This document shows, one piece after another, positions 5,423-43,192 of a DNA stretch of 64,000 nucleotides. Source of the DNA: Bdellovibrionales bacterium. Lineage in GTDB: Bacteria; Bdellovibrionota_C; UBA2361; SZUA-149; JAGRAN01. Under the pieces are notes generated by a model. The model saw only the letters and a list, made by a program, of their open reading frames with translations, made no database searches and was not told where the DNA came from. The stretch covers positions 1,157-65,156 of the forward strand of contig JAGRAN010000043.1 in assembly GCA_020434585.1 (NCBI GenBank), written 5' to 3'. The stretch's first letter is position 1; each line of letters starts with the position of its first letter. A program made the position numbers and the translations under genes.

Positions 5423-7027
5423 ATGAAGCAAGATGTTCGATTTTTTAAGATTGTAGATCGCGAGGGTCCCGAAGACTTCGAGACAACGCTGGCGTTTCAG
5501 CAGAACCTGCTTAAATCAAAAGTCGAAGATCGCAGCCTGCTCGACACTCTGGTTCTCGTTGAACATGAAGAGGTATACACTGCAGGGCGCGGATGCGATT
5601 TTCAAACTCCGCTTGCCTCCGATGCCTCCCGCGTGCCCTGGGTAGAAATTGGCAGAGGTGGGCAGGCCACATTTCACGGCCCAGGACAGCTCGTCGCCTA
5701 TCCGATTTTCGACTTAGAACATCATGGACGTGATGTTCACATATTTCTGCGGATGCTCGAAGAAACAATCATCAAGACCCTGGCCGAATTTGATGTTGCG
5801 GGCCAGCGACGCGAGGGCCTGACCGGTGTGTGGGTGACGCTAGACGGACAGTGGAGAAAAATTGCGTCTTTAGGCATCGGAGTACGGCGCTGGGTGTCCT
5901 ACCACGGATTGGCGCTCAATGTTTCTCCTAACCTCGATTTCTTTAAAGCAATCTCCCCTTGCGGCCAGGACGGCGCAATAATGACATCGCTGGAAGAGGT
6001 CAGACGATCAATGGATCGAGTCACTCCGAGCATGGCTGAGATTAAGCAGGCCCTAACTCTTGCCTTTTGCGACGTGTTTTCAATGTCGCTCGACGAGGAG
6101 AAAAGCTTACTTGCCGGCAAACGTCCGCGTTGGATTAAAGCTAAGGCTCCAGGGTCCCCGGAGTTCATGGAAACGCTCAACATCGTAAAGAGCAAAGGAC
6201 TAGTAACAGTTTGCGAAGAAGCGCGCTGCCCCAATATCGGCGAGTGCTGGTCACACCACACCGCAACCTTCATGATTATGGGCGAGCTGTGCACGCGCCG
6301 CTGTGCCTTTTGCTCAGTAAAGGATGGTCTTAAAACTACATTAGAACCACTCGATATTTTTGAACCGCTGAAAGTTGCGCGAGCCGTCAAAGAATTGAAC
6401 CTGAAGCATATCGTCGTTACCTCGGTAAACCGAGATGACCTCGAAGACATGGGAGCTGCTCACTTCTATCGGACGGCAAAGGCCATCAGAGAGGCCAATC
6501 CCGAATGTAAAATCGAGTTTTTAATCCCCGATATGCGCGGGCGACGCGAACTGCTTGAGACTATTTTAAAAGACAACCTCGTACACGTGCTTAACCACAA
6601 CATCGAAACTGTACCCAGACTCTATAGAACCGTTCGACCTGGAGCGAAGTTCGATCGCTCCCTTGACATTCTGCGTTGGGCTAAAGAAATCCACCCATCC
6701 GTGAAAACGAAGTGCGGCATTATGGTCGGTTTAGGCGAACGCCGCGACGAAGTTACTCAAGTTATGGATCGACTTCGTGAGATCGATGTAAACATTATGA
6801 CTATCGGTCAATACTTGCAGCCGTCCAAAAAGCAGCTGCCCGTCAAACGCTTCGTCACTCCTGAAGAATTTGAAGACTACAAGCAGGAAGGCATCAATCG
6901 CGGCTTTTCGTTTGTGGAATCTGGGACTTTTGTAAGAAGTTCATACCACGCATGGAAACACACAGAAGAAGCTGAGCGGGCCGAGAGGCATTCTGAGGCA
7001 CCTACGCACGCACACGCAACTTTGTAG
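5423..7027 (+). CDS. lipBA: Fused octanoyltransferase LipB / lipoyl synthase LipA (534 aa)
   Basis: N-terminal half has the LipB fold (HEEVYTAGRG, GQLVAYPI). C-terminal half is radical-SAM LipA, with CEEARCPNIGEC and CTRRCAFCSV cysteine clusters. Single continuous ORF. Confidence 0.85.
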   Translation: MKQDVRFFKIVDREGPEDFETTLAFQQNLLKSKVEDRSLLDTLVLVEHEEVYTAGRGCDFQTPLASDASRVPWVEIGRGGQATFHGPGQLVAYPIFDLEHHGRDVHIFLRMLEETIIKTLAEFDVAGQRREGLTGVWVTLDGQWRKIASLGIGVRRWVSYHGLALNVSPNLDFFKAISPCGQDGAIMTSLEEVRRSMDRVTPSMAEIKQALTLAFCDVFSMSLDEEKSLLAGKRPRWIKAKAPGSPEFMETLNIVKSKGLVTVCEEARCPNIGECWSHHTATFMIMGELCTRRCAFCSVKDGLKTTLEPLDIFEPLKVARAVKELNLKHIVVTSVNRDDLEDMGAAHFYRTAKAIREANPECKIEFLIPDMRGRRELLETILKDNLVHVLNHNIETVPRLYRTVRPGAKFDRSLDILRWAKEIHPSVKTKCGIMVGLGERRDEVTQVMDRLREIDVNIMTIGQYLQPSKKQLPVKRFVTPEEFEDYKQEGINRGFSFVESGTFVRSSYHAWKHTEEAERAERHSEAPTHAHATL

Positions 7028-33930: not shown

Positions 33931-34698
33931 ATGATCGCATTGCTCCTAAGGCGCGGTCGTGTTGGGTCACGCTTTCGCACGGAAACTGGCGTGCACATGA
34001 TCGAACTCGCTATCGGCCTTCCGCTGCTCTTCATCACTATCTTTATTACGTTCGACCTCGCGAAGGTCACGGCAGGCTATATGTCGATGCACTCAGCAGT
34101 CAGCTTGGCCACGAGGCGCGCTGCTGCTATTTCCCGACCTGAGTGGGGCAATGTCACTATAGCTTACAACAATACTAATCCTGTTACCGGAGACCAATCA
34201 ATTCCCGCAGGGGGGGGGCAGTTGGCCGGTGTTTTGCGCAACTATACTGAATTCGTTTCCCCTGGAATTGATGGAAGTTGGTATGACGCCATAGCAGACG
34301 ACAATATCCAATTCGCAAACGAAGACCGAGATCCGATAGGCAATTTATTCAGGATTGAAGCCAGAGCGATTGCATACGCAAACTCCGCTATCACAAACAA
34401 CGTTGGTGGCTCTCAATACCCATGCGACGCAGGCATTCCTAACGGCAACCCTGGTGCCGGACCTCCCGGCTGCTTCCGCTGTTTTACTCTGAGAGGAGAC
34501 AACACAGATTATCGCAACAAATTTACCCAAGGGGGACTTGGCCAAGTCTGGGAAAACAAGGTGCTTGCAATTCGCTGCGATTACGATATCCCGATCCTGA
34601 CATCAGCTTTTTTTGGGGCGGCACCATTCTGGACAGTCTCGTCGACTGTATATGTAGCCATCAACGACTACTCCGACTGGTTCTACTTCCTGCTATAA
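33931..34698 (+). CDS. TadE-like protein (Flp-pilus-assembly pseudopilin family)
   Basis: N-terminus TETGVHMIELAIGLPLLFITIFITFDLAKV matches the TadE-like domain pattern (charged, then EFALxxPxLL). Confidence 0.6.
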   Translation: MIALLLRRGRVGSRFRTETGVHMIELAIGLPLLFITIFITFDLAKVTAGYMSMHSAVSLATRRAAAISRPEWGNVTIAYNNTNPVTGDQSIPAGGGQLAGVLRNYTEFVSPGIDGSWYDAIADDNIQFANEDRDPIGNLFRIEARAIAYANSAITNNVGGSQYPCDAGIPNGNPGAGPPGCFRCFTLRGDNTDYRNKFTQGGLGQVWENKVLAIRCDYDIPILTSAFFGAAPFWTVSSTVYVAINDYSDWFYFLL

Positions 34699-34713
34699 GC
34701 GAGAGATTTTCTA

Positions 34714-37389
34714 ATGACGAACAAATGGCAGAGAACGTTATCTAGGCTGAGTTGTGAGGGCGGCGCTGCCCTTGCCTATTTAGCGATATTCATGTTTCTT
34801 CTGTTGATCATCGCTTTTGGCTATCAAATCGACATGTCGTTTACCGCCGCCTCATCTGCGCAAGGTCAAATTGCAATGGATGAAGCCGGATTCCATGGTA
34901 TCGCTGAGATTCCTGATTACGACGCGATGTACAACGTCGCGCAGGGCGAAGCAAGAAGCCTCCTCGATGTTGGCAGCGGCTTCACGGGTCCCTTTTATTC
35001 CGGGGGCCTGCCTTCTGGTATTGGGAATTCGACTTTTAGCTCTGTCCCAGGATTTGCAATTTGGATTCCGAGGAAAGGCCTCGGCTCCGGCGCTTTCTAT
35101 CCTGAAAGCCTCACGCCCGCTGACAATGCTAACCTATATAACGATGTAATTCGACGCGCAGTGGACCCCTGTCTGGACGGAAACCCTTTTACTTGCGGCA
35201 CCGGTCAATTAGACACATGGGGCAACGCAGTAGTAATGCGAGCTGTCCTGAGCCCCACTCAAGTTTTTGCAATCGGCAACATCCTCCCTGCCACCAATGT
35301 TGAGATTATTTCGGTTGCCCACGAGCAGTCGAGCTGGGTTTATATAGTTGTAGACCCTACCTTCCCGTTCTTTAACGGCAATGCCCAGCACATCTGGGGT
35401 CCCAGTTTTCAATGGCAGGTCGGCGCTGGAACAGAGCCTGGCCAGTGGCCACTAGTTGATGCAATCGAGCCAATTTCAGCAGCGGCGATAGACGCAGGGG
35501 GGGTTGGTTTTCCAGGATTCGATCAGAGCTATACGTGGCTTTCAACTCCGACTTCTCCCCTCGGTGCAAACATCTCGGGAAATACTCCGTTCGTCCCCTT
35601 CTTCCCTTCCATGGGTGCACTTGAGGAAACTTTTCATAAAGTCTACGGCTCCGCCTGTAATAACTTTGTTTGGCAGAACTACCTACGTGGAATTGTGCGC
35701 GTAATTGACTTGTTTACGCGTAGTTCTGCCTACAACTACTTTACAATGGTCGGCATCGACAGTGGCATTCCAGATGACAACATCTCCTCTTTGAACGGGG
35801 GTAACTTTGACCCTTCATCCGGTGGAGGACCAACCTCATTAACTGACACTAACTCTTGGAGCAGCTGGAGCAACCAAACTGTTGATCATCTCAGAACGAT
35901 CGCAGTGCACCCTACGGTCGCCTACGGCCAAGTTCCTACACTGACCACTGGAGCAATATCAATTCATTCAGACGGGTCAGATCCAGCGCTTAGTGTCTCT
36001 CAGTTTAACAATCCAGACGGCACTGATACTGGCGCACTTCACTCTCCTAAAACGTTTGGATTTCGAGGCTGGATTAACGTTACCGATCCAAGCTCGAACC
36101 CTGCAGTAAAGACTGTTGCAACGCAGATGAGTTCTGCGGCGTTCGGCAGAGAGTATGTTAACAACAAGTGGCTCGAGCTATGCGTGTGCCACGGAGTAAA
36201 TGCTGGGTCCGGGGGAAGCGGGTGCGATGGAAGCGGATCGGAAAACTGCCTTTCGCCTGATGTAGATTCCGAGGACTATTTCAGCGACTGGTTTCGCCAC
36301 GACGAAAGCGGCGACACGCGTGAGCGCCAGAGGGCACAACCAGGAACCACTACCTTCAACTGGTGCAGCGATACACTGAACTCGGACAACGTTGATTTCT
36401 CAGATCATCGCCAAGGTGCGGACGAATCTGTTAGAAACATTATCGCAGGCTTAGGCCCCAGAGTTTTAAATCCCAACATCCCACGTAACGGTGCCCTCAA
36501 TAACACTACCGGGAATCCGCAAAACTGTAACGGCAGTGGTGAGCCTTGCTGGAGAACTCCGGTCGACGACGATCCCGACGGCGCCGGCCCAATTACGGCC
36601 ATTCCTCAGCCAGATCTATCTCCGTCTGGTTGTCTATTGGAAAACAATAATGCTAGCTGCCAGGCTTTTTTCCCGAACTCTGCGGTCGGGTACACTGATT
36701 ACCCTCCCGAAAAATGGTGGCTACCCGGACACCAAATGCTTGCGCACTCATTGCGTCACGCGGTCGATATGATTTCAATTTCCGCAGCTGCCTATTCTAA
36801 CAATATCGGTTTTCAGAACTATGCGGCAGTTAATCCCGTCCTGCCCGAGAATCGGGCAATAGTCCTTTTTGGTCTTCGACCCTACAGCCCTATTACTGGC
36901 GCGACTATAAACGGAACAGGGCTAACCAAGAACCAAATGGCCAATGAATGGCGCGCAAGCCTTGCTTGGGCCGCTTGCACCAACAGTACGCAAGTGGTCA
37001 TTGCTGCGCTTGCCCTTGACGACTACGGAGCCAGCAGGTGGGGTGACATTGCTCTGGTTGTGGAGGATTTTAAGAACTATTTTAATGCTCAGAGCGAAGG
37101 TTGCACTCAAGCGGGCTTCGGCGCCAACTGTCTTGACGATGTTCTGCCCTCGCTAGGTGGCGGAGGAGCTGCTCCTCACCCAGCTTGCACGACAACCGCG
37201 ATGGGCAACAACCAGCAGCCCGGTGCCAGCGGAGAAATGGCCCGCGTATCGATGTATATTAGAGACTTCAATGAACCCGGGCTAACAGGTACTCCGGCTG
37301 TCAGAAAGGCCAAGGCCGCGCAAGGTTTTGCGGCAGAAGCATGGTCTGTCATTCAGTCTCTGATATCAAAACAAGACGCACTGCTCTGA
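34714..37389 (+). CDS. Large TadG-like protein (891 aa) with Gly/Asn/Ser/Pro-rich extracellular body
   Basis: N-terminus CEGGAALAYLAIFMFLLLIIAFGYQIDMSF is TadG/TadE-like. The remainder is low-complexity beta-rich with scattered Cys. Confidence 0.55.
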   Translation: MTNKWQRTLSRLSCEGGAALAYLAIFMFLLLIIAFGYQIDMSFTAASSAQGQIAMDEAGFHGIAEIPDYDAMYNVAQGEARSLLDVGSGFTGPFYSGGLPSGIGNSTFSSVPGFAIWIPRKGLGSGAFYPESLTPADNANLYNDVIRRAVDPCLDGNPFTCGTGQLDTWGNAVVMRAVLSPTQVFAIGNILPATNVEIISVAHEQSSWVYIVVDPTFPFFNGNAQHIWGPSFQWQVGAGTEPGQWPLVDAIEPISAAAIDAGGVGFPGFDQSYTWLSTPTSPLGANISGNTPFVPFFPSMGALEETFHKVYGSACNNFVWQNYLRGIVRVIDLFTRSSAYNYFTMVGIDSGIPDDNISSLNGGNFDPSSGGGPTSLTDTNSWSSWSNQTVDHLRTIAVHPTVAYGQVPTLTTGAISIHSDGSDPALSVSQFNNPDGTDTGALHSPKTFGFRGWINVTDPSSNPAVKTVATQMSSAAFGREYVNNKWLELCVCHGVNAGSGGSGCDGSGSENCLSPDVDSEDYFSDWFRHDESGDTRERQRAQPGTTTFNWCSDTLNSDNVDFSDHRQGADESVRNIIAGLGPRVLNPNIPRNGALNNTTGNPQNCNGSGEPCWRTPVDDDPDGAGPITAIPQPDLSPSGCLLENNNASCQAFFPNSAVGYTDYPPEKWWLPGHQMLAHSLRHAVDMISISAAAYSNNIGFQNYAAVNPVLPENRAIVLFGLRPYSPITGATINGTGLTKNQMANEWRASLAWAACTNSTQVVIAALALDDYGASRWGDIALVVEDFKNYFNAQSEGCTQAGFGANCLDDVLPSLGGGGAAPHPACTTTAMGNNQQPGASGEMARVSMYIRDFNEPGLTGTPAVRKAKAAQGFAAEAWSVIQSLISKQDALL

Positions 37390-37399
37390 GGACACGCTA

Positions 37400-37648
37400 A
37401 TGAGACGCGAATCAGCACTGCATAATGAGAACGGAGCCGAAATTGTAGAACTGCTGCTTGGAGCAGCTATTTTAATTGTGGGGCTCCTTGCAGTTATTTC
37501 TTTTAATGAGGACGCGTGGTCCAACCGAACTCGAACTGCCCGCTGTCAGTATCAGGATTGGCAGCAAGTTGACCCGAGCGGCGGAACCGTACAGATGCTT
37601 TACAACGATTCTCAAGGTCGATGCTGTCGTAACGGCGTCTGCACCTAG
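37400..37648 (+). CDS. Small TadE-like/pseudopilin-like protein (82 aa)
   Basis: ENGAEIVELLLGAAILIVGLLAVISF N-terminal motif. Three Cys in the C-terminal tail. Confidence 0.45.
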   Translation: MRRESALHNENGAEIVELLLGAAILIVGLLAVISFNEDAWSNRTRTARCQYQDWQQVDPSGGTVQMLYNDSQGRCCRNGVCT

Positions 37649-37650
37649 GG

Positions 37651-39072
37651 CTAATTCCCCCGATAGTTTGACACGCCGTCTCTTCTTGAGCGGTTTCTCT
37701 GGCGCTTCGTGCTGTATGTTTCCCAATCAGAGCGCTTCCAAAACAAGTATTGCTCCGCAGACTGCCAAATGCTGCGACCGGGAATTCGTTCCGAGCCTGA
37801 GTCGACCTCGTATCTTGTAGTTATCCCTTGCTCACGCGCGTAGTCTTCTAGGTATTGCTTGAATTGCGTTGCTCCGTAAAGCACGTCTCCACCCTCGAGA
37901 AAAACAAGTCTAACATCGGTTTTTACAAAGTTATACATGTCGATAGATACATCTTTTGCGAGCGGTGACGGTTTCAGTCCGTCCGGGAAAAGCTCGTTTG
38001 TGTCTAGCCTGAGAAAATTTGACGAAGCGGCAAACGCGCGCGCAATGCGCTTGGGATGAGTCATGACAAACCTCTGGACAAAAGCACCGCCACCGCCAAT
38101 GCCGTACAGATACATTTCGCGCGCCTCGATGTCGGCTTCTTTTGCAACGTATTCGGCAACATCAAGAAATACTTTGTCCGCTCTACGTCCTCCGAGATTA
38201 AATGTCCCATAGTTTGGAAAGGTCAGGAAGTCGTAGTGAACCACCAGCGTGGCCAAACCGTGGTCACGGGCACGCTTCTGGCAGTACGCGAAGACCGAGT
38301 CCCAATCTAAGTCATAGTCGTGAAAGCACGCAAGGAGACGCGGCTTGTCGCCGTTTCGCGCTCGGACCGTAGGATAGTAAAACTGATAGTCTACTCCCTG
38401 ATACCTACGCACGTCGCGTTCACCGGCTTTATTGACGGGATCAATTTTCTCGGTGTCCAGCTCGCCCTTCGCAAATGCGATGGCGTGATTGATCGCGAGA
38501 GTGACTTTCGGTTCGTCAATACGAGCTCCCGCCTGCTCCAACGCATACATTGCTTCCCGGCTTCCTAGTATCCCTAAAGCCTGCGCCGCGGCGTAGCGAA
38601 CCCTTGGTTTAGCTGAGCGGTCTACCAAAATCTTAGTTAAACGGGGGACAGCCCACTTATGCTTAAGCTTGCCAAGAGTAAGTACTGCCTCAATCTGCAC
38701 ATCTTCGCTGCCTTCCAAAGTGTACTTCTCGACCAGTTTGCCAGCTCTCGGATCGGCGACCACTCCAAGCGAAGCGAGTATTGATCGCTGCGCTCTCTCG
38801 CTCGAAGCCAGCGGAAGCGCCTCAATCAATCGAAAAAAATCTGTTTTATCTACCAGTTCGGGAAGGGCCAGCGACGCTTCAATCACACCAGCTTCGTCAT
38901 CTCCCATCAGTCTTTGTAAAACAGCCGAGACCAACGCACCGTGATCCTCAGGCGCAGCATCTTGGGCGGCTGCAAAACTTACCGGGGCAAAGAATAGTGA
39001 AAATATAAAAAATGCAAGAAATTTCATGAAGACCCGCGTCGCGTCTGTAAGCAATCCATTTGAGAGTATCAA
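37651..39072 (-). CDS. HEAT-repeat protein fused to alpha/beta-hydrolase-like (esterase/depolymerase-like) domain
   Basis: Signal peptide. PBS-lyase-type HEAT repeats (PRVRYAAAQALGILG). A C-terminal hydrolase-like region carries GIGGGG where GxSxG is expected. Confidence 0.55.
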   Translation of the reverse strand: MILSNGLLTDATRVFMKFLAFFIFSLFFAPVSFAAAQDAAPEDHGALVSAVLQRLMGDDEAGVIEASLALPELVDKTDFFRLIEALPLASSERAQRSILASLGVVADPRAGKLVEKYTLEGSEDVQIEAVLTLGKLKHKWAVPRLTKILVDRSAKPRVRYAAAQALGILGSREAMYALEQAGARIDEPKVTLAINHAIAFAKGELDTEKIDPVNKAGERDVRRYQGVDYQFYYPTVRARNGDKPRLLACFHDYDLDWDSVFAYCQKRARDHGLATLVVHYDFLTFPNYGTFNLGGRRADKVFLDVAEYVAKEADIEAREMYLYGIGGGGAFVQRFVMTHPKRIARAFAASSNFLRLDTNELFPDGLKPSPLAKDVSIDMYNFVKTDVRLVFLEGGDVLYGATQFKQYLEDYAREQGITTRYEVDSGSERIPGRSIWQSAEQYLFWKRSDWETYSTKRQRNRSRRDGVSNYRGN

Positions 39073-39447: not shown

Positions 39448-41378
39448 TGTCCCTCAAGAGTTCCATTCCCAAGTTCGACGCGAAAATAAGTCAAGCGGTA
39501 GCGGAGATAGTGAGGGAGAAACTTGAAGCTGGACGCACGTTCCGTCTGGCCATCCAAACCCCCAGCATGTCCCCACTGATCACTCCAGGCGATGTCGTGC
39601 AAGTTCAAGGTAAAAATTTGACCGATATAAAACGAGGCGAAGTGGTCTGCTATAAACTACTCGGGGGATTTGGCGTACACAGAGTCGTCATTCCGTTCAG
39701 ATCTGAGAGCAAAACAATTACCACCCGCGGAGAACGCAATCTTGAAAATGACTATCCGATATCTGAGCAGGAATATATTGGAGTCGTTCGTGCGGTCGAA
39801 AGAGACGGTGAAGTAATTCACCTAGATACAATTCGCGGCAAATTCTTTGACTGGCGCTGCTGGCTCAGTGCCTCAAAGAAGCGCTTCGAGGCGCTTTCGC
39901 GCAAAAAGCTTGCGCGTATCGTTGTTCGCACACAAACGTTCCGACCGTTGCGTGCACTTTACGAATCTTTATATACACTGGGCCTCAATTCTTGGGTCAG
40001 ATTGCTGCCGCGGAAGAATCAAGTTAAAGCGGTGTTTGTCTATGGAAGCATGGCTGTAAAACGGATCATTCCTGGCTTAAGTGATATCGACTTAGTGGTC
40101 ATAGTTAAGCCGGAGAAAAAAGAAGACCTCTTTCCACTGCTAAGCTCGATTCACAAATATCACTACCGCATGATGCGCTGCTTCCCGTTTATATCACCAC
40201 CTAAGGTTTGCACTGAGAACGAATTCCGTAATTGGAACCGTTTCGGCAACTTCTACTTTCAGGATCACAAACGCTCAAAACTAATGTTCGGGGTAGATGA
40301 CCGTCCTGCCCCAATTTATGGAACGCCGATAAAACGGGAGCGAGACTTCGTTCATTTGCTAACCTTCGCGCACGGCTACTTTATCAATCATGCGTATGCG
40401 ATTATTTCCGGCACCGCATCCAAGCGCGATTACAATTCAATTGCAAAGCATGCGTCAGATATTCTCCGATATGCCGAGCAGGTATACATGACGATCGAGT
40501 CATACAGCGATCTTCCGATCAGTCGTGATGAGTTTCTTCGCTGGATTAAGAAGAAACACCCGAAAACAGAACGTGAAGCGATTGCTGAGCTGGCTGAAAG
40601 AGCCCGGATGTCAAATTCCGCACCCCAATCAGAACGTGCACTTCTCGCCGCGGAACTTTTCCTCCGCACGGTAAACGAAATGGTCTCGTTTGTTAAGTCA
40701 TCTTTCGCAATCTGGAGCTTTCTGCCAAACCCAGCAATCAAACTGTCCGAAGCGATGCTCGACAATGTTAGAATTCAACTCGTTGAAAGTAGTGTCCAAA
40801 AATTTACAACTAATAAATTTCAGCCGCTACTCGGCATTCTAATCGAGGCCGATACCACTCCTGAAGATTTGGTAAACAAAGTCGTCAAACTTCGTGAACA
40901 TGCAAGGCACACGGCCGCTCATCCGCTTCTCGTACACAGCAAGATGTTCAAGCTGATCAAAGCTTTGAATTCTAGTTCATATTTCGAAATGAGGGCGAAG
41001 GGTCAAATTTCCGAACTCGACTTCTGGCAGTGCCTTTGCGCCCAGCTGCTTGACCTTCAGACTTACGGATGGATTTCAGGAAAATACCCCGAGATTTCTA
41101 ACCGCCTGCACAGCATGAATATTCAACTCTTACTAAACCTGCGCTATGCACTTCGTTACGAATATCTGGAAGGCAGATTTAGCAGCGGATTTCAGATTGT
41201 TCCGCCTACGAGTGATCCACTCTCCGAGCCAATTAAAAACTTCATCCACGACATAAGCAGTGGAAACGAGTGGCTTTACCGCAGTGATTTTTGCAGCAAA
41301 TACTATCTCCTGGCCCGGGAAGTTTGGGACGAAGTGTATGCTCTAGCTCAGAATGGCTTAAAACAAAACGAAATCTGA
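39447..41378 (+). CDS. Fusion protein: S24/S26-type Ser-Lys peptidase domain + Pol-beta-superfamily nucleotidyltransferase + C-terminal helical domain (643 aa)
   Basis: Residues 38-65 TPSMSPLITPGDVVQV...DIKRGEVV match the SPase-I/LexA catalytic Ser and Lys. The domain ends in IGVVRAVERDG. Residues 195-216 VFVYGSMAVKRIIPGLSDIDLVVIV carry the NTase GS...DxD motif. Start overlaps the PqqD stop (ATGA). Confidence 0.75.
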   Translation: MSLKSSIPKFDAKISQAVAEIVREKLEAGRTFRLAIQTPSMSPLITPGDVVQVQGKNLTDIKRGEVVCYKLLGGFGVHRVVIPFRSESKTITTRGERNLENDYPISEQEYIGVVRAVERDGEVIHLDTIRGKFFDWRCWLSASKKRFEALSRKKLARIVVRTQTFRPLRALYESLYTLGLNSWVRLLPRKNQVKAVFVYGSMAVKRIIPGLSDIDLVVIVKPEKKEDLFPLLSSIHKYHYRMMRCFPFISPPKVCTENEFRNWNRFGNFYFQDHKRSKLMFGVDDRPAPIYGTPIKRERDFVHLLTFAHGYFINHAYAIISGTASKRDYNSIAKHASDILRYAEQVYMTIESYSDLPISRDEFLRWIKKKHPKTEREAIAELAERARMSNSAPQSERALLAAELFLRTVNEMVSFVKSSFAIWSFLPNPAIKLSEAMLDNVRIQLVESSVQKFTTNKFQPLLGILIEADTTPEDLVNKVVKLREHARHTAAHPLLVHSKMFKLIKALNSSSYFEMRAKGQISELDFWQCLCAQLLDLQTYGWISGKYPEISNRLHSMNIQLLLNLRYALRYEYLEGRFSSGFQIVPPTSDPLSEPIKNFIHDISSGNEWLYRSDFCSKYYLLAREVWDEVYALAQNGLKQNEI

Positions 41379-41398: not shown

Positions 41399-41590
41399 CT
41401 ACATTTCAAGATTGATAAATTCGCCAGAATAGCCTAGCGAGCCCTCTTCAACCAGCTCGCCAGCCTCGTTTAGCGTTTCGATGGACGTAGCTCCGAAGCC
41501 TTCCACCTTCGACCCGTTCTCTAGGCAAGGCTTGTTGTATGCTTTGCGATCTTGGATTTTAAGCGTGCTGGTATTGTTTACTTCTGACAT
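41399..41590 (-). CDS. Candidate small acidic peptide (63 aa), possible precursor/substrate peptide
   Basis: MSEVNNTSTLKIQDRKAYNKPCLENGSKVEGFGATSIETLNEAGELVEEGSLGYSGEFINLEM. SD GAGAGGA lies 7 nt upstream. It is first in the minus-strand string peptide->ABC->kinase, and convergent with the fusion gene. Confidence 0.5.
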   Translation of the reverse strand: MSEVNNTSTLKIQDRKAYNKPCLENGSKVEGFGATSIETLNEAGELVEEGSLGYSGEFINLEM

Positions 41591-41687
41591 GCGTTTGGTC
41601 CTCTCGTTAACCCTGCTCTAGGAAACCATCTTAATTCTAGCACAGCAAACGCGATAAATTCAATAAAAATGATGTGTTTTTGGACAT

Positions 41688-42410
41688 TTAAACCTCAAGC
41701 CCCGCCTCTGAAATCGCCCGTTCAAGCGAGTCAAAAGCCTTGAAATTACCCTCATGATAAACTAGCAATTTGGTGCAAATTTCTCTAATGATTTCGAGAT
41801 CATGGGATGCCACTAAGCACCCCCCACCCTTTTGCGAAAAGCGCTTTATTTGTTCGCAGCAGTGTCTCTTAGCTTGGAGATCGAGCGATCGTTCGAATTC
41901 GTCGAGGAGCAGAATTTCCGCCGCAGAATGTTGGACGATGCTGAAAGCAAGTCGCGCACGCATCCCAGGGCTAAGGAGGCGAATTTGAGTATCTGCTTCG
42001 ACGTCAATTCCGCTTGATTTAATTACGTCCGCAGCAGCTATGGCTAAATTAACCGGCACCCGCATCAATGCACTACAAAGGTCTATATTCTCTTTAACAT
42101 CTAGTTCCGCACTGAAATACGCATTGGGAGACATAAATGGCATCACCCCCGCAGTTATATTTACAGCACCTTCATCCGGCGCATAGATACCGGCAGCAAG
42201 CCGTAGAATTGTGGACTTACCTGAACCGTTTGGCCCAACAATCCCAATTATATCACCTGGGCCGAGCGCGAAGCTCAGCGGCTGTAAAACTTGTTTTGAC
42301 TCATGTTTACTCGGTCTTAGTCGAGCCAATGCCCAAGCAACAAACCGCTCCCTCTTCCACCAAGTCGGAAATGATTTTACCACACTATCAAACTGAAGCA
42401 GTGCGCTCAT
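41688..42410 (-). CDS. ABC transporter ATP-binding protein (ABC-2/Wzt-like, short)
   Basis: Walker A GPNGSGKST. ABC signature LSPGMRARLAF. Walker B ILLLDE. Start set at the internal Met (MSALLQFDSVVKSF), giving a 4-nt overlap with the permease stop. Confidence 0.85.
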   Translation of the reverse strand: MSALLQFDSVVKSFPTWWKRERFVAWALARLRPSKHESKQVLQPLSFALGPGDIIGIVGPNGSGKSTILRLAAGIYAPDEGAVNITAGVMPFMSPNAYFSAELDVKENIDLCSALMRVPVNLAIAAADVIKSSGIDVEADTQIRLLSPGMRARLAFSIVQHSAAEILLLDEFERSLDLQAKRHCCEQIKRFSQKGGGCLVASHDLEIIREICTKLLVYHEGNFKAFDSLERAISEAGLEV

Positions 42411-43192
42411 ACCACCTCCGCCACACGCTGCTTTAGACCGTGCGCAACTGCAGCGCCGACTGCAAACACAATTAAAGCGAACAACACAGCGTACCCAACT
42501 GACCACAACGCAAGAACACCACTCTCGCCCACGCCACTGCGAGCAAGGCGAAAAACGTGCGTAAGCGGATTAAGCTGAAGCCAGCTTATTCGCCGGCCTA
42601 CAAATACTTCGGGGTAGAATATTGGAGTTGCAAAAAAAGCGATCCGAGAAACTATGCCCCAAAGGTAGGGGGTATCTCTAATAAACACGTTAGCAACTGA
42701 AAGCAGCAAAGCTAGTCCGGAACAAACTAGCAGCAACAGCACTGCTGCGACGCAATAGCCGGCGAAAATTGCTGCTCCGTGCATACCATTCAGGTAACTG
42801 ACTAACAGCAAAACTAAGACGCTCTCTAAACAAAATGCCCCAAAAACCGCAGCAACTGGAGACAAGACAACTATCCAAAACGGTACACTCATGGATCGCA
42901 GCCATTCACGGCGAGTAAGTGCGGAAGACATGCCAGCACTAGTCGCTCGCGAAAAGAAACCCCACATAACGAGGCCAACTAACAGAAATGTCCCATAGCC
43001 GCTTTGGTACTTTTCGAAAGCAGGTCCGAGAAACGCGTAAATGATGCACCAGCTCAGCAAAGGGCTGAATAAGGTCATCATAAATCCCGCGAAACTGGAT
43101 TGATCACGGCTTCTCCACTCTGCTAGCACAAGCCTGACAAAAAGTTTCCAGTTTGTGAGCTGTTTCGATTTCAAACTAAGCGCGACCCTCAA
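42407..43192 (-). CDS. ABC-2 type transporter permease
   Basis: 261 aa with six predicted TM helices. Adjacent and translationally coupled to the ATPase. Confidence 0.8.
   Translation of the reverse strand: MRVALSLKSKQLTNWKLFVRLVLAEWRSRDQSSFAGFMMTLFSPLLSWCIIYAFLGPAFEKYQSGYGTFLLVGLVMWGFFSRATSAGMSSALTRREWLRSMSVPFWIVVLSPVAAVFGAFCLESVLVLLLVSYLNGMHGAAIFAGYCVAAVLLLLVCSGLALLLSVANVFIRDTPYLWGIVSRIAFFATPIFYPEVFVGRRISWLQLNPLTHVFRLARSGVGESGVLALWSVGYAVLFALIVFAVGAAVAHGLKQRVAEVV

Follow-up and report, generated by a model that had tools for sequence, protein, structure and literature searches.

The small gene, its signals and its conservation

The stretch of DNA analysed here, referred to as the window, comprises 64,000 nucleotides of contig JAGRAN010000043.1 from the metagenome-assembled genome (MAG) of a Bdellovibrionales bacterium and contains, on its minus strand, a small open reading frame (ORF) of 63 residues with the translation MSEVNNTSTLKIQDRKAYNKPCLENGSKVEGFGATSIETLNEAGELVEEGSLGYSGEFINLEM. 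In an earlier inspection of the letters of the window alone—here called the sequence-only reading—this ORF, convergent to the gene for a fusion enzyme, was proposed to encode a substrate or precursor peptide for the products of the neighbouring PqqD, kinase and nucleotidyltransferase genes. Its position and length have been confirmed: an in-frame stop codon lies upstream, the ATG being the next start codon, and the NCBI annotation pipeline independently called the same ORF as a gene in the Bdellovibrionales MAG (Table 1). As had been described, 20 nt separate the TAG stop (41399-41401) from the TGA stop (41376-41378) with which the convergent gene for the 643-residue fusion protein ends. The Shine-Dalgarno sequence is also present, at a distance of 8 nt from the ATG and not of 7 nt as given originally, the relatives having GGGAGGG or AAGGAG at the equivalent position. 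Concerning the gene order, the minus strand carries the genes for a kinase, an ABC-2 (ATP-binding cassette type 2) permease and an ATPase, followed by a gap of 97 nt and the small ORF; the latter is thus the 3'-most gene, lying 3' of both the exporter and the kinase genes, not directly upstream of them as the sequence-only reading had it.

The 97-nt gap is conserved far beyond the neutral expectation at such divergence. It contains a promoter-like block with the -35 sequence TTGAAT (41663-41658) and the TG-extended -10 sequence TAGAAT (41639-41634), and directly upstream of the former there is a conserved A/T-rich element, AAAAACACATCATTTTTA (41681-41664, minus strand), beginning just past the stop codon of the ATPase gene. 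This element is nearly identical in the related locus L001 and largely kept in L002, the fusion proteins of which are, respectively, 59% and 43% identical to that of the window. Judged from these similarities, the small ORF appears to have its own conserved promoter. The A/T-rich element itself may represent an UP element or the site to which a regulator binds. No intrinsic terminator was found between the convergent genes, and no Rfam match was obtained in the segment 41250-41800.

The 643-residue neighbour has just three close homologues (59%, 57% and 43% identity) in 5.8 billion proteins. On all three of their contigs, as well as in one MAG from GTDB, an ORF of 59-66 residues is found convergently, directly after the fusion gene and before the gene for the ABC ATPase, and its frame is the only one that is open in all four close relatives; the search for homologous small ORFs, advised by the sequence-only reading, has thus revealed conservation of both position and sequence. 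Among these four relatives, the synonymous sites are saturated (pS, the proportion of differing synonymous sites, being 0.78-0.88) versus a pN of 0.39-0.47 at the nonsynonymous ones, differences occur at 42/58 third codon positions compared with 25 first and 19 second positions, and the ratio of nonsynonymous to synonymous substitution rates (dN/dS) of the closest pair is 0.39. Because of the conserved position, the coding-type substitution pattern and the conserved Shine-Dalgarno sequence and promoter block, the small ORF is a real protein-coding gene, which purifying selection maintains and which occurs strictly in the same loci as the genes for the fusion protein and for a discrete recognition element (RRE) of RiPPs, peptides that are made on ribosomes and modified after translation.

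The alignment of the four peptides shows eight invariant residues—K16, Y18, K20, P21, G31, F32, G33 and A34. Out of 926 small intergenic ORFs from 91 sequences, eight contain Y.[KR]P.[LVIM], all eight being peptides of the present kind (one of them, in L014, comes from a short contig duplicating part of L008), and none of them was seen in a locus without an RRE encoded nearby. Beyond this set, a word-indexed protein search with the peptide retrieved only the peptide itself, neither Pfam nor NCBIfam matched it or its homologues even at E<=10, and a profile search of the PDB with the peptide alignment yielded nothing. A profile scan with the alignment of the fusion protein added one locus from genome contigs, a duplicate of the L001 lineage, and no locus from metagenomes.

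Predicted leader and core, and the neighbouring proteins

The most conserved part of the peptide is the motif K16-x-Y18-x-K20-P21-x-L23 (41522-41545), reading Y18-N-K-P21-C-L23 in the window, together with the invariant G31-F-G-A34 (41489-41500); the tyrosine and the proline of the former are invariant across all homologues. A motif of the form [Y/W]xxPx[L/V/I/A/F] is bound by discrete RREs of the lasso type (Popov et al., Nat Commun 2026, PMC13381572). The same study describes the 'linear polyphosphorylated peptides' (LPPs) of Bacillota, represented by the cluster lppA-K-B-S-D-N of Paenibacillus alginolyticus DSM5050, in which precursors of 35-200 residues carry the sequence YxxPxVLxHQxIxFET followed, past the cleavage site, by xxS. 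The LPP clusters lie, without a cyclase gene, within capsular polysaccharide loci and encode the RRE LppB, the SipW-like peptidase LppS (S29/H68/D93), the HprK-like kinase LppK, the nucleotidyltransferase (NTase) LppN of the NTP_transf_5 family and an MsbA-like (TIGR02203) pump (PMC13381572). The leader is cleaved in an RRE-dependent manner after T(-1), 15 residues past the tyrosine, F(-3) being important, and Ser3 of the core is polyphosphorylated (PMC13381572).

In LppA, as rebuilt from the primers of that paper, the leader MEENTKREQKLYARPMVLSQQPVRFET is followed by AQSWNK, with T(-1) positioned 15 residues past the tyrosine. The distance from the tyrosine to the invariant alanine is 16 residues in the peptides of the window, L001, L003 and L008, and 15 residues in that of L002. 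Based on this similarity of spacing, cleavage is predicted to occur after A34 of G-F-G-A, i.e. between A34 and T35, with F32 in the -3 role; the bond between T35 and S36 would be the alternative. A small residue at position -1 is expected for an enzyme of the S26 family. The leader that the sequence-only reading regarded as possible would thus comprise about 34 of the 63 residues and not one third. The predicted core, i.e. the C-terminal 29 residues, has a net charge of -7 and five Ser/Thr, in agreement with the composition and the acidic C-terminal half noted before; it is more variable across the relatives than the leader, the residue following the invariant alanine being T, S or N. The single cysteine pointed out by the sequence-only reading, C22, is indeed the only one, and a functional role for it was rejected, since it is not conserved among the relatives.

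The gene for the RRE overlaps by 1 nt that for the fusion protein. The best solved-structure relatives of the RRE are the lasso B1 proteins TbiB1 (5v1u, E 2.9e-12), TfuB1 and PbaB1, LppB (9x8z) being absent from these matches. Against a hidden Markov model (HMM) of nine LPP RREs—this and the other LPP models were built from Supplementary Data 1 of PMC13381572—the RRE of the window scores 41.6 bits, and its D77, F81, L85 and L90 align with D70, F74, M78 and L83 of LppB, the first of which, D70, hydrogen-bonds the leader tyrosine (PMC13381572).

Concerning the fusion protein, the fusion recognized earlier has been borne out; what had been missed is its SipW-like S26 domain, probably the leader peptidase. 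This domain matches human SEC11C (7p2q) with an E-value of 7e-4 and an HMM of 11 LppS proteins with 45 bits, including the N-terminal helix, which in LppS contacts the RRE (PMC13381572), and the spacing of the catalytic triad is 38 + 24 residues compared with 39 + 25 in LppS. The fused S26-NTase architecture was retrieved in two to three dozen clusters at 50% identity by an exhaustive HMM search, and among 15 diverse fused homologues the sole invariant residues are S40-M41, H78-R79, D102, G112, G210, S212, D213, D215 and G282. It should be mentioned that the AlphaFold2 (AF2) model of the fusion protein, obtained from a four-sequence alignment, was too poor for a fold search (pLDDT 53.6).

The kinase-like protein has no Pfam match and matches TIGR04352 (HprK_rel_A) only over the P-loop region (E 1e-3). 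Its AF2 model (pLDDT 91.6) resembles most closely the phosphoenolpyruvate (PEP) carboxykinases (Foldseek E 1e-10), whose fold class includes the catalytic domain of HprK; the P-loop and the LxSDD motif are common to the kinase of the window and a true HprK, and a weak match to Hpr_kinase_C is seen in seven of 34 kinase homologues. The mechanically defined ORF of the ATPase starts with GTG at 42506 (272 residues), the likely start being, however, the ATG at 42410 (MSALLQF…), as indicated by the 240-residue homologue in L004. Since this start overlaps the stop of the permease gene, the genes for the kinase, permease and ATPase look translationally coupled.

The whole cluster is situated in a polysaccharide locus with genes for glycosyltransferases (GTs) of the families GT2 and GT4, PMT_2, phosphodiesterase, GNVR, deacetylase and aminotransferase. 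An Asn-synthase-like lasso cyclase was found neither in the scanned ORFs of at least 200 residues (some three-quarters of all ORFs of this size in the window) nor in the related loci, and within 37-50 kb there is no unassigned ORF of a size that would suit a lasso cyclase or a B2 protease. Divergently from the PqqD gene, a gene for a 473-residue HEAT-repeat protein is located (37651-39072, minus strand), upstream of which TadE-like, 891-residue and 82-residue proteins are encoded (33931-37648, plus strand). The HEAT-repeat gene and the TadE-like block are syntenic with the cluster in L001, L002 and L003, and the TadE-like and large genes recur in L005. At a greater distance, there is a 534-residue protein (5423-7027, plus strand) in which a radical-SAM domain is joined to a catalytic domain of the LipB/LplA-type lipoyl(octanoyl) transferases, an apparent LipB-LipA fusion whose gene adjoins that for a 2-oxoacid dehydrogenase E2.

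Table 1. Positions of the genes, signals and predicted parts of the cluster within the window
Feature	Position	Strand	Basis and remarks
Candidate precursor-peptide gene, 63 aa	41399..41590	minus	MCB0344635.1 (NCBI 'hypothetical protein'); positional and sequence conservation; purifying selection
Predicted leader, residues 1-34	41489..41590	minus	RRE-binding motif and invariant GFGA; cleavage position inferred
Predicted core, residues 35-63, TSIETLNEAGELVEEGSLGYSGEFINLEM	41402..41488	minus	boundary uncertain by about one residue
Shine-Dalgarno sequence GAGAGGA	41599..41605	minus	8 nt before ATG
Promoter-like region in the 97-nt gap	41634..41681	minus	consensus scan; block kept in L001 and L002; predicted function
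Discrete RRE, PqqD family, 95 aa	39160..39447	plus	MCB0344633.1; Pfam PqqD E 1.7e-13; 1-nt overlap with next gene
Fusion protein, 643 aa	39447..41378	plus	MCB0344634.1; S26 peptidase and NTase; C-terminal ~400 residues helical
SipW/Sec11-type S26 domain, ~residues 15-133	39489-39845	plus	Ser40/His78/Asp102; TIGR02228 E 1.9e-11
Pol-beta-type NTase core, ~residues 186-236	40002-40154	plus	G210-x-S212-D213-x-D215; PF01909 and PF18765 matches
ABC transporter ATPase	41688..42410	minus	ABC_tran E 9e-17; closest NCBIfam TagH/Wzt-like
ABC-2 type permease	42407..43192	minus	PF01061 E 4e-9; Wzm-like
P-loop kinase-like protein, HprK/PEPCK fold, 340 aa	43176..44198	minus	AF2 model and Foldseek

Related loci and known systems

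Homologues of the kinase number more than 238, their identities being roughly 40%, and come from many phyla. The family spans Omnitrophota, Verrucomicrobiota, Thermodesulfobacteriota, Binatia and others and is usually found in loci with glycosyltransferase and PMT_2 genes that encode no RRE, S26 domain or YxxP peptide. In the kinase-family loci surveyed (L006, L007, L010 and L011-L090), a homologue of the central, NTase-containing region of the fusion protein often occurs directly downstream of the kinase, as exemplified by L044 (1545-3833), L072 (1402-3702) and L082 (3385-5650). In L005, the kinase of which exhibits 48% identity to that of the window, the order kinase, ABC-2 permease, ATPase and small ORF is retained; the small ORF there reads ...KIPYKKPAL...GGGATQ..., and a PqqD gene with a diverged S26-NTase fusion is found 7 kb off. 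In L008, and in L014 as its partial duplicate, a peptide reading ...KKPYVKPQLVEQREIRSFCATDVLPG is encoded beside a GT2-PqqD fusion and the kinase.

As far as the fused S26-NTase clusters are concerned, the genomic context was read for two of them. The first one, L091, contains a convergent ORF of 65 residues, ...GGYQKPGLKRRRINQGLRGQGSTPTD..., after the fusion gene; nearby are ABC-2 genes, a GT2 gene, part of a kinase gene and the gene for a 793-residue protein possessing two RRE domains. In the other one, L092, an ORF of 68 residues, ...PKEYKKPTLQSPEKLDCFFMS, is located directly upstream of a PqqD gene, beyond which RRE-fused GT2 and the fused S26-NTase protein are encoded. The GT2-RRE fusions and the double RRE protein beside YxKPxL peptides (L008 6325-7832, corresponding to L014 425-577; L092 3502-5283; L091 1-2382) hint at an RRE-guided glycosylating subfamily. 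Two of these peptides have very short tails, …SFCATDVLPG and …LDCFFMS, each possessing a cysteine and a phenylalanine.

With the LPP systems, the cluster of the window shares the YxxPx[V/L] leader, the discrete lasso-like RRE, the SipW/archaeal-type Ser/His/Asp peptidase, an NTase and an ABC exporter, as well as the absence of a cyclase from the ORFs scanned, the polysaccharide-locus setting, the putative cleavage 15-16 residues past the tyrosine and the variable core. Its kinase may correspond to the HprK-like one of LPP clusters, the fold and the motifs being similar and the sequence scores weak. It differs from them in the host, which belongs to Bdellovibrionales or related MAGs, whereas LPPs have been stated to be restricted to Bacillota (PMC13381572), although the supplement of that study lists, without analysis, isolated pairs of signal peptidase I (SpI) and RRE from a Bdellovibrionales MAG, Thiolapillus and Chondromyces. 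Further differences concern the peptidase and NTase, which form a single polypeptide in the window, the NTase itself, which matches PF01909/PF18765 whereas NTP_transf_5 was not matched at E<=1 by the protein of the window or nine homologues, and the exporter, which is a two-gene ABC-2 system similar to Wzm/Wzt or TagH and not MsbA-like. In the distal leader, the window lineage has G-F-G-A-[T/S/N] where LPPs have HQxIxFET; a strongly acidic predicted core (-7) contrasts with the Gly/Asn/Lys-rich cores of LPPs, and the gene for the precursor terminates the kinase-ABC operon on its 3' side, converging with those for the RRE and the peptidase.

In the paeninodin and pseudomycoidin lasso clusters (PadeK/PsmK, PsmN), a kinase homologous to HprK acts on the precursor and an NTase, sometimes fused to the leader peptidase (B2 protease), decorates the phosphate (PMC8498205). 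These clusters resemble that of the window in the B1-type RRE and the [Y/W]xxPxL leader; unlike them, the latter has neither a lasso cyclase nor a B2 cysteine protease, its fused peptidase being a serine enzyme of family S26, and the peptides of the window family do not have the C-terminal serine, ending with M, F, Y and F. The signal peptidases SipW and Sec11 share with the S26 domain the catalytic motifs SM-P, HR and N-x-x-x-D, TIGR02228 and SEC11 being its best matches; the domain of the window, in contrast, has no transmembrane anchor, is cytoplasmic, fused to the NTase and coupled to an RRE, and its predicted target is a RiPP leader instead of a secretion signal. Weak matches also connect the kinase (TIGR04352) and the RRE (TIGR04353 and TIGR04248) with the HPr-rel-A/SynChlorMet (ScmC/ScmD) systems, the scores being, however, far under the curated cut-offs and the cluster being free of radical-SAM genes; membership in the PQQ or SynChlorMet systems was therefore rejected, the RRE matches being sub-threshold and a radical-SAM partner lacking in the cluster. 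Some kinase homologues (P0065 and a neighbour of P0129) carry the Pfam domain ScmC (PF27840) of the SynChlorMet cassette; an evolutionary link between the kinase/RRE pair and this radical-SAM cassette is suggested by such sequence matches.

A linear, leader-dependent RiPP as the favoured explanation

Based on the conserved position and sequence, the RRE-binding YxxPxL leader and the existence of a characterized analogue, the LPP, the precursor call of the sequence-only reading is supported, and the product of the small gene is probably a precursor from which an LPP-type RiPP, linear and dependent on a leader, is made, a reading to which a probability of roughly 0.75 is assigned. By analogy with LPP, the precursor gene would be transcribed from its own promoter and the leader segment K-x-Y18-x-K-P21-x-L23 would bind to the PqqD-type RRE as an added beta-strand, with Tyr18 in a pocket closed by Asp77. 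The RRE would then hand the peptide to the convergently encoded fusion protein, whose SipW-like Ser40/His78/Asp102 domain is predicted to cut off the leader of about 34 residues at or next to G-F-G-A34, Phe32 corresponding to Phe(-3) of LppA. Subsequently, one of the Ser or Thr residues in the acidic core may be phosphorylated by the kinase of the HprK fold, the NTase domain may attach a further group to the phosphorylated residue, and the ABC-2 transporter would export the product.

Several observations weigh against this explanation. The HMM of the LPP leader aligns solely over KKpYxxPxV, the scores ranging from -0.3 to 14 bits with -0.3 for the peptide of the window, from which LxHQxIxFET is absent; the sequence homology between the kinase and HprK is weak, the NTase belongs to a family different from that of LppN, and the exporter differs from the MsbA-like pump. 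In the L002 homologue, Ser/Thr are absent up to a distance of 15 residues from where cleavage is predicted, and the peptides of L008 and L092 have very short tails past the motif. Moreover, many kinase loci possess no RRE, S26 peptidase or YxxP peptide, yet an NTase-only homologue adjoins the kinase there, as is the case in 12 of the 29 evaluable metagenome loci. Since such pairs are widespread in glycan loci without an RRE or a peptide, the kinase and NTase of the window may act on another substrate.

Among the alternatives, the one regarding the ORF as a chance frame or a non-coding spacer between convergent genes could refer to its shortness and the lack of a database family; it is practically ruled out, being already refuted by the alignment with its frame open in all relatives, by saturated synonymous sites next to a conserved protein (including the dN/dS of the closest pair), and by the conserved Shine-Dalgarno sequence and promoter, the absence of an Rfam match and the independent gene call of NCBI also speaking against it. 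It is also very unlikely that the product is a small acidic protein outside the RiPPs—for instance one with a regulatory function or one accessory to the ABC exporter or the kinase—that would be neither cleaved nor modified. Although the gene is the last one after those for the kinase, permease and ATPase, in the same order in L005, and its product matches no Pfam or NCBIfam entry, conservation coincides exactly with the motif for RRE binding, no such peptide occurs where an RRE is missing, and the C-terminal half varies in the manner of RiPP cores; in addition, the placement of the ORF directly upstream of the RRE gene in L092 and after the fusion gene in L091 means that the peptide tracks the RRE and peptidase genes, not the ABC genes.

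A lasso-peptide precursor, with the cyclase and B2 protease encoded elsewhere in the genome, would account for the YxxPxL leader and the lasso-type RRE with TbiB1 as its best solved-structure match, T35 could serve as the lasso Thr(-2), and there is a Glu nine residues past S36. An acidic residue at core positions 7-9 is, however, expected by chance because of the ~25% Glu in the core, neither the T, S or N found at the would-be -2 position nor the I, E or V that would begin the core fits a lasso core, and the residues following the would-be -2 position are not conserved. As no cyclase was seen in the scanned ORFs or any related locus, and an S26 peptidase, the gene of which is coupled in translation to that for the RRE, occupies the place of the transglutaminase-like B2, this highly improbable explanation was rejected, in accordance with the earlier remark that the peptide does not look like a canonical lasso core.

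A variant of the favoured explanation, in which the peptide would be chiefly glycosylated instead of polyphosphorylated and exported by the Wzm/Wzt-like ABC-2 system in a polysaccharide pathway, is unlikely but less so than the three alternatives above. It is in line with the GT2 proteins fused to or encoded beside the RRE in relatives (L008, L091, L092 and the context of P0129), with the position of the cluster among GT2, PMT_2 and phosphodiesterase genes, with the closest resemblance of the ABC-2 proteins to Wzm/Wzt and TagH, and with T, S or N—all glycosyl acceptors—following the invariant alanine. NTases of the PsmN type, moreover, add a hexose to phospho-Ser in pseudomycoidin (PMC8498205). 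On the other hand, the GTs of the window carry no RRE, the flanking GT genes may serve polysaccharide synthesis alone, and LppN was inactive in the only LPP system assayed (PMC13381572). A further reading, unlikely to a similar degree, would see the peptide as a scaffold made by the ribosome for a phospho-linked glycopeptide: once the S26 domain, guided by the RRE, has removed the leader, the first Ser/Thr of the core would be phosphorylated by the kinase, the fused NTase would move a sugar or a nucleotide onto the phosphate, the neighbouring GTs (RRE-fused in relatives) would extend it, and the Wzm/Wzt-type ABC-2 pump would export the phospho-linked glycopeptide. If this were true, a RiPP pathway would be tied to the assembly of capsule or exopolysaccharide outside Bacillota, and the LppN-type enzymes would gain their missing function.

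Returning to the favoured explanation of an LPP-like precursor, the fusion of the processing enzymes—S26 peptidase and NTase—in Bdellovibrionales is an arrangement not yet described. The fusion of peptidase with NTase, together with the RRE-GT2 fusions in relatives, speaks for the peptide itself being the target of the NTase and probably of glycosylation. A searchable precursor motif is now available, consisting of K-x-Y-x-K-P-x-L, about nine residues and G-F-G-A. The LPP-like logic, in which a YxxP leader is combined with a lasso-type RRE, a SipW-like peptidase, a kinase and an NTase, would extend to Bdellovibrionales-like and other uncultured Gram-negative lineages, the fused gene sets of which may represent simpler systems for studying the fate of the peptide and any link to capsule or biofilm polysaccharide.

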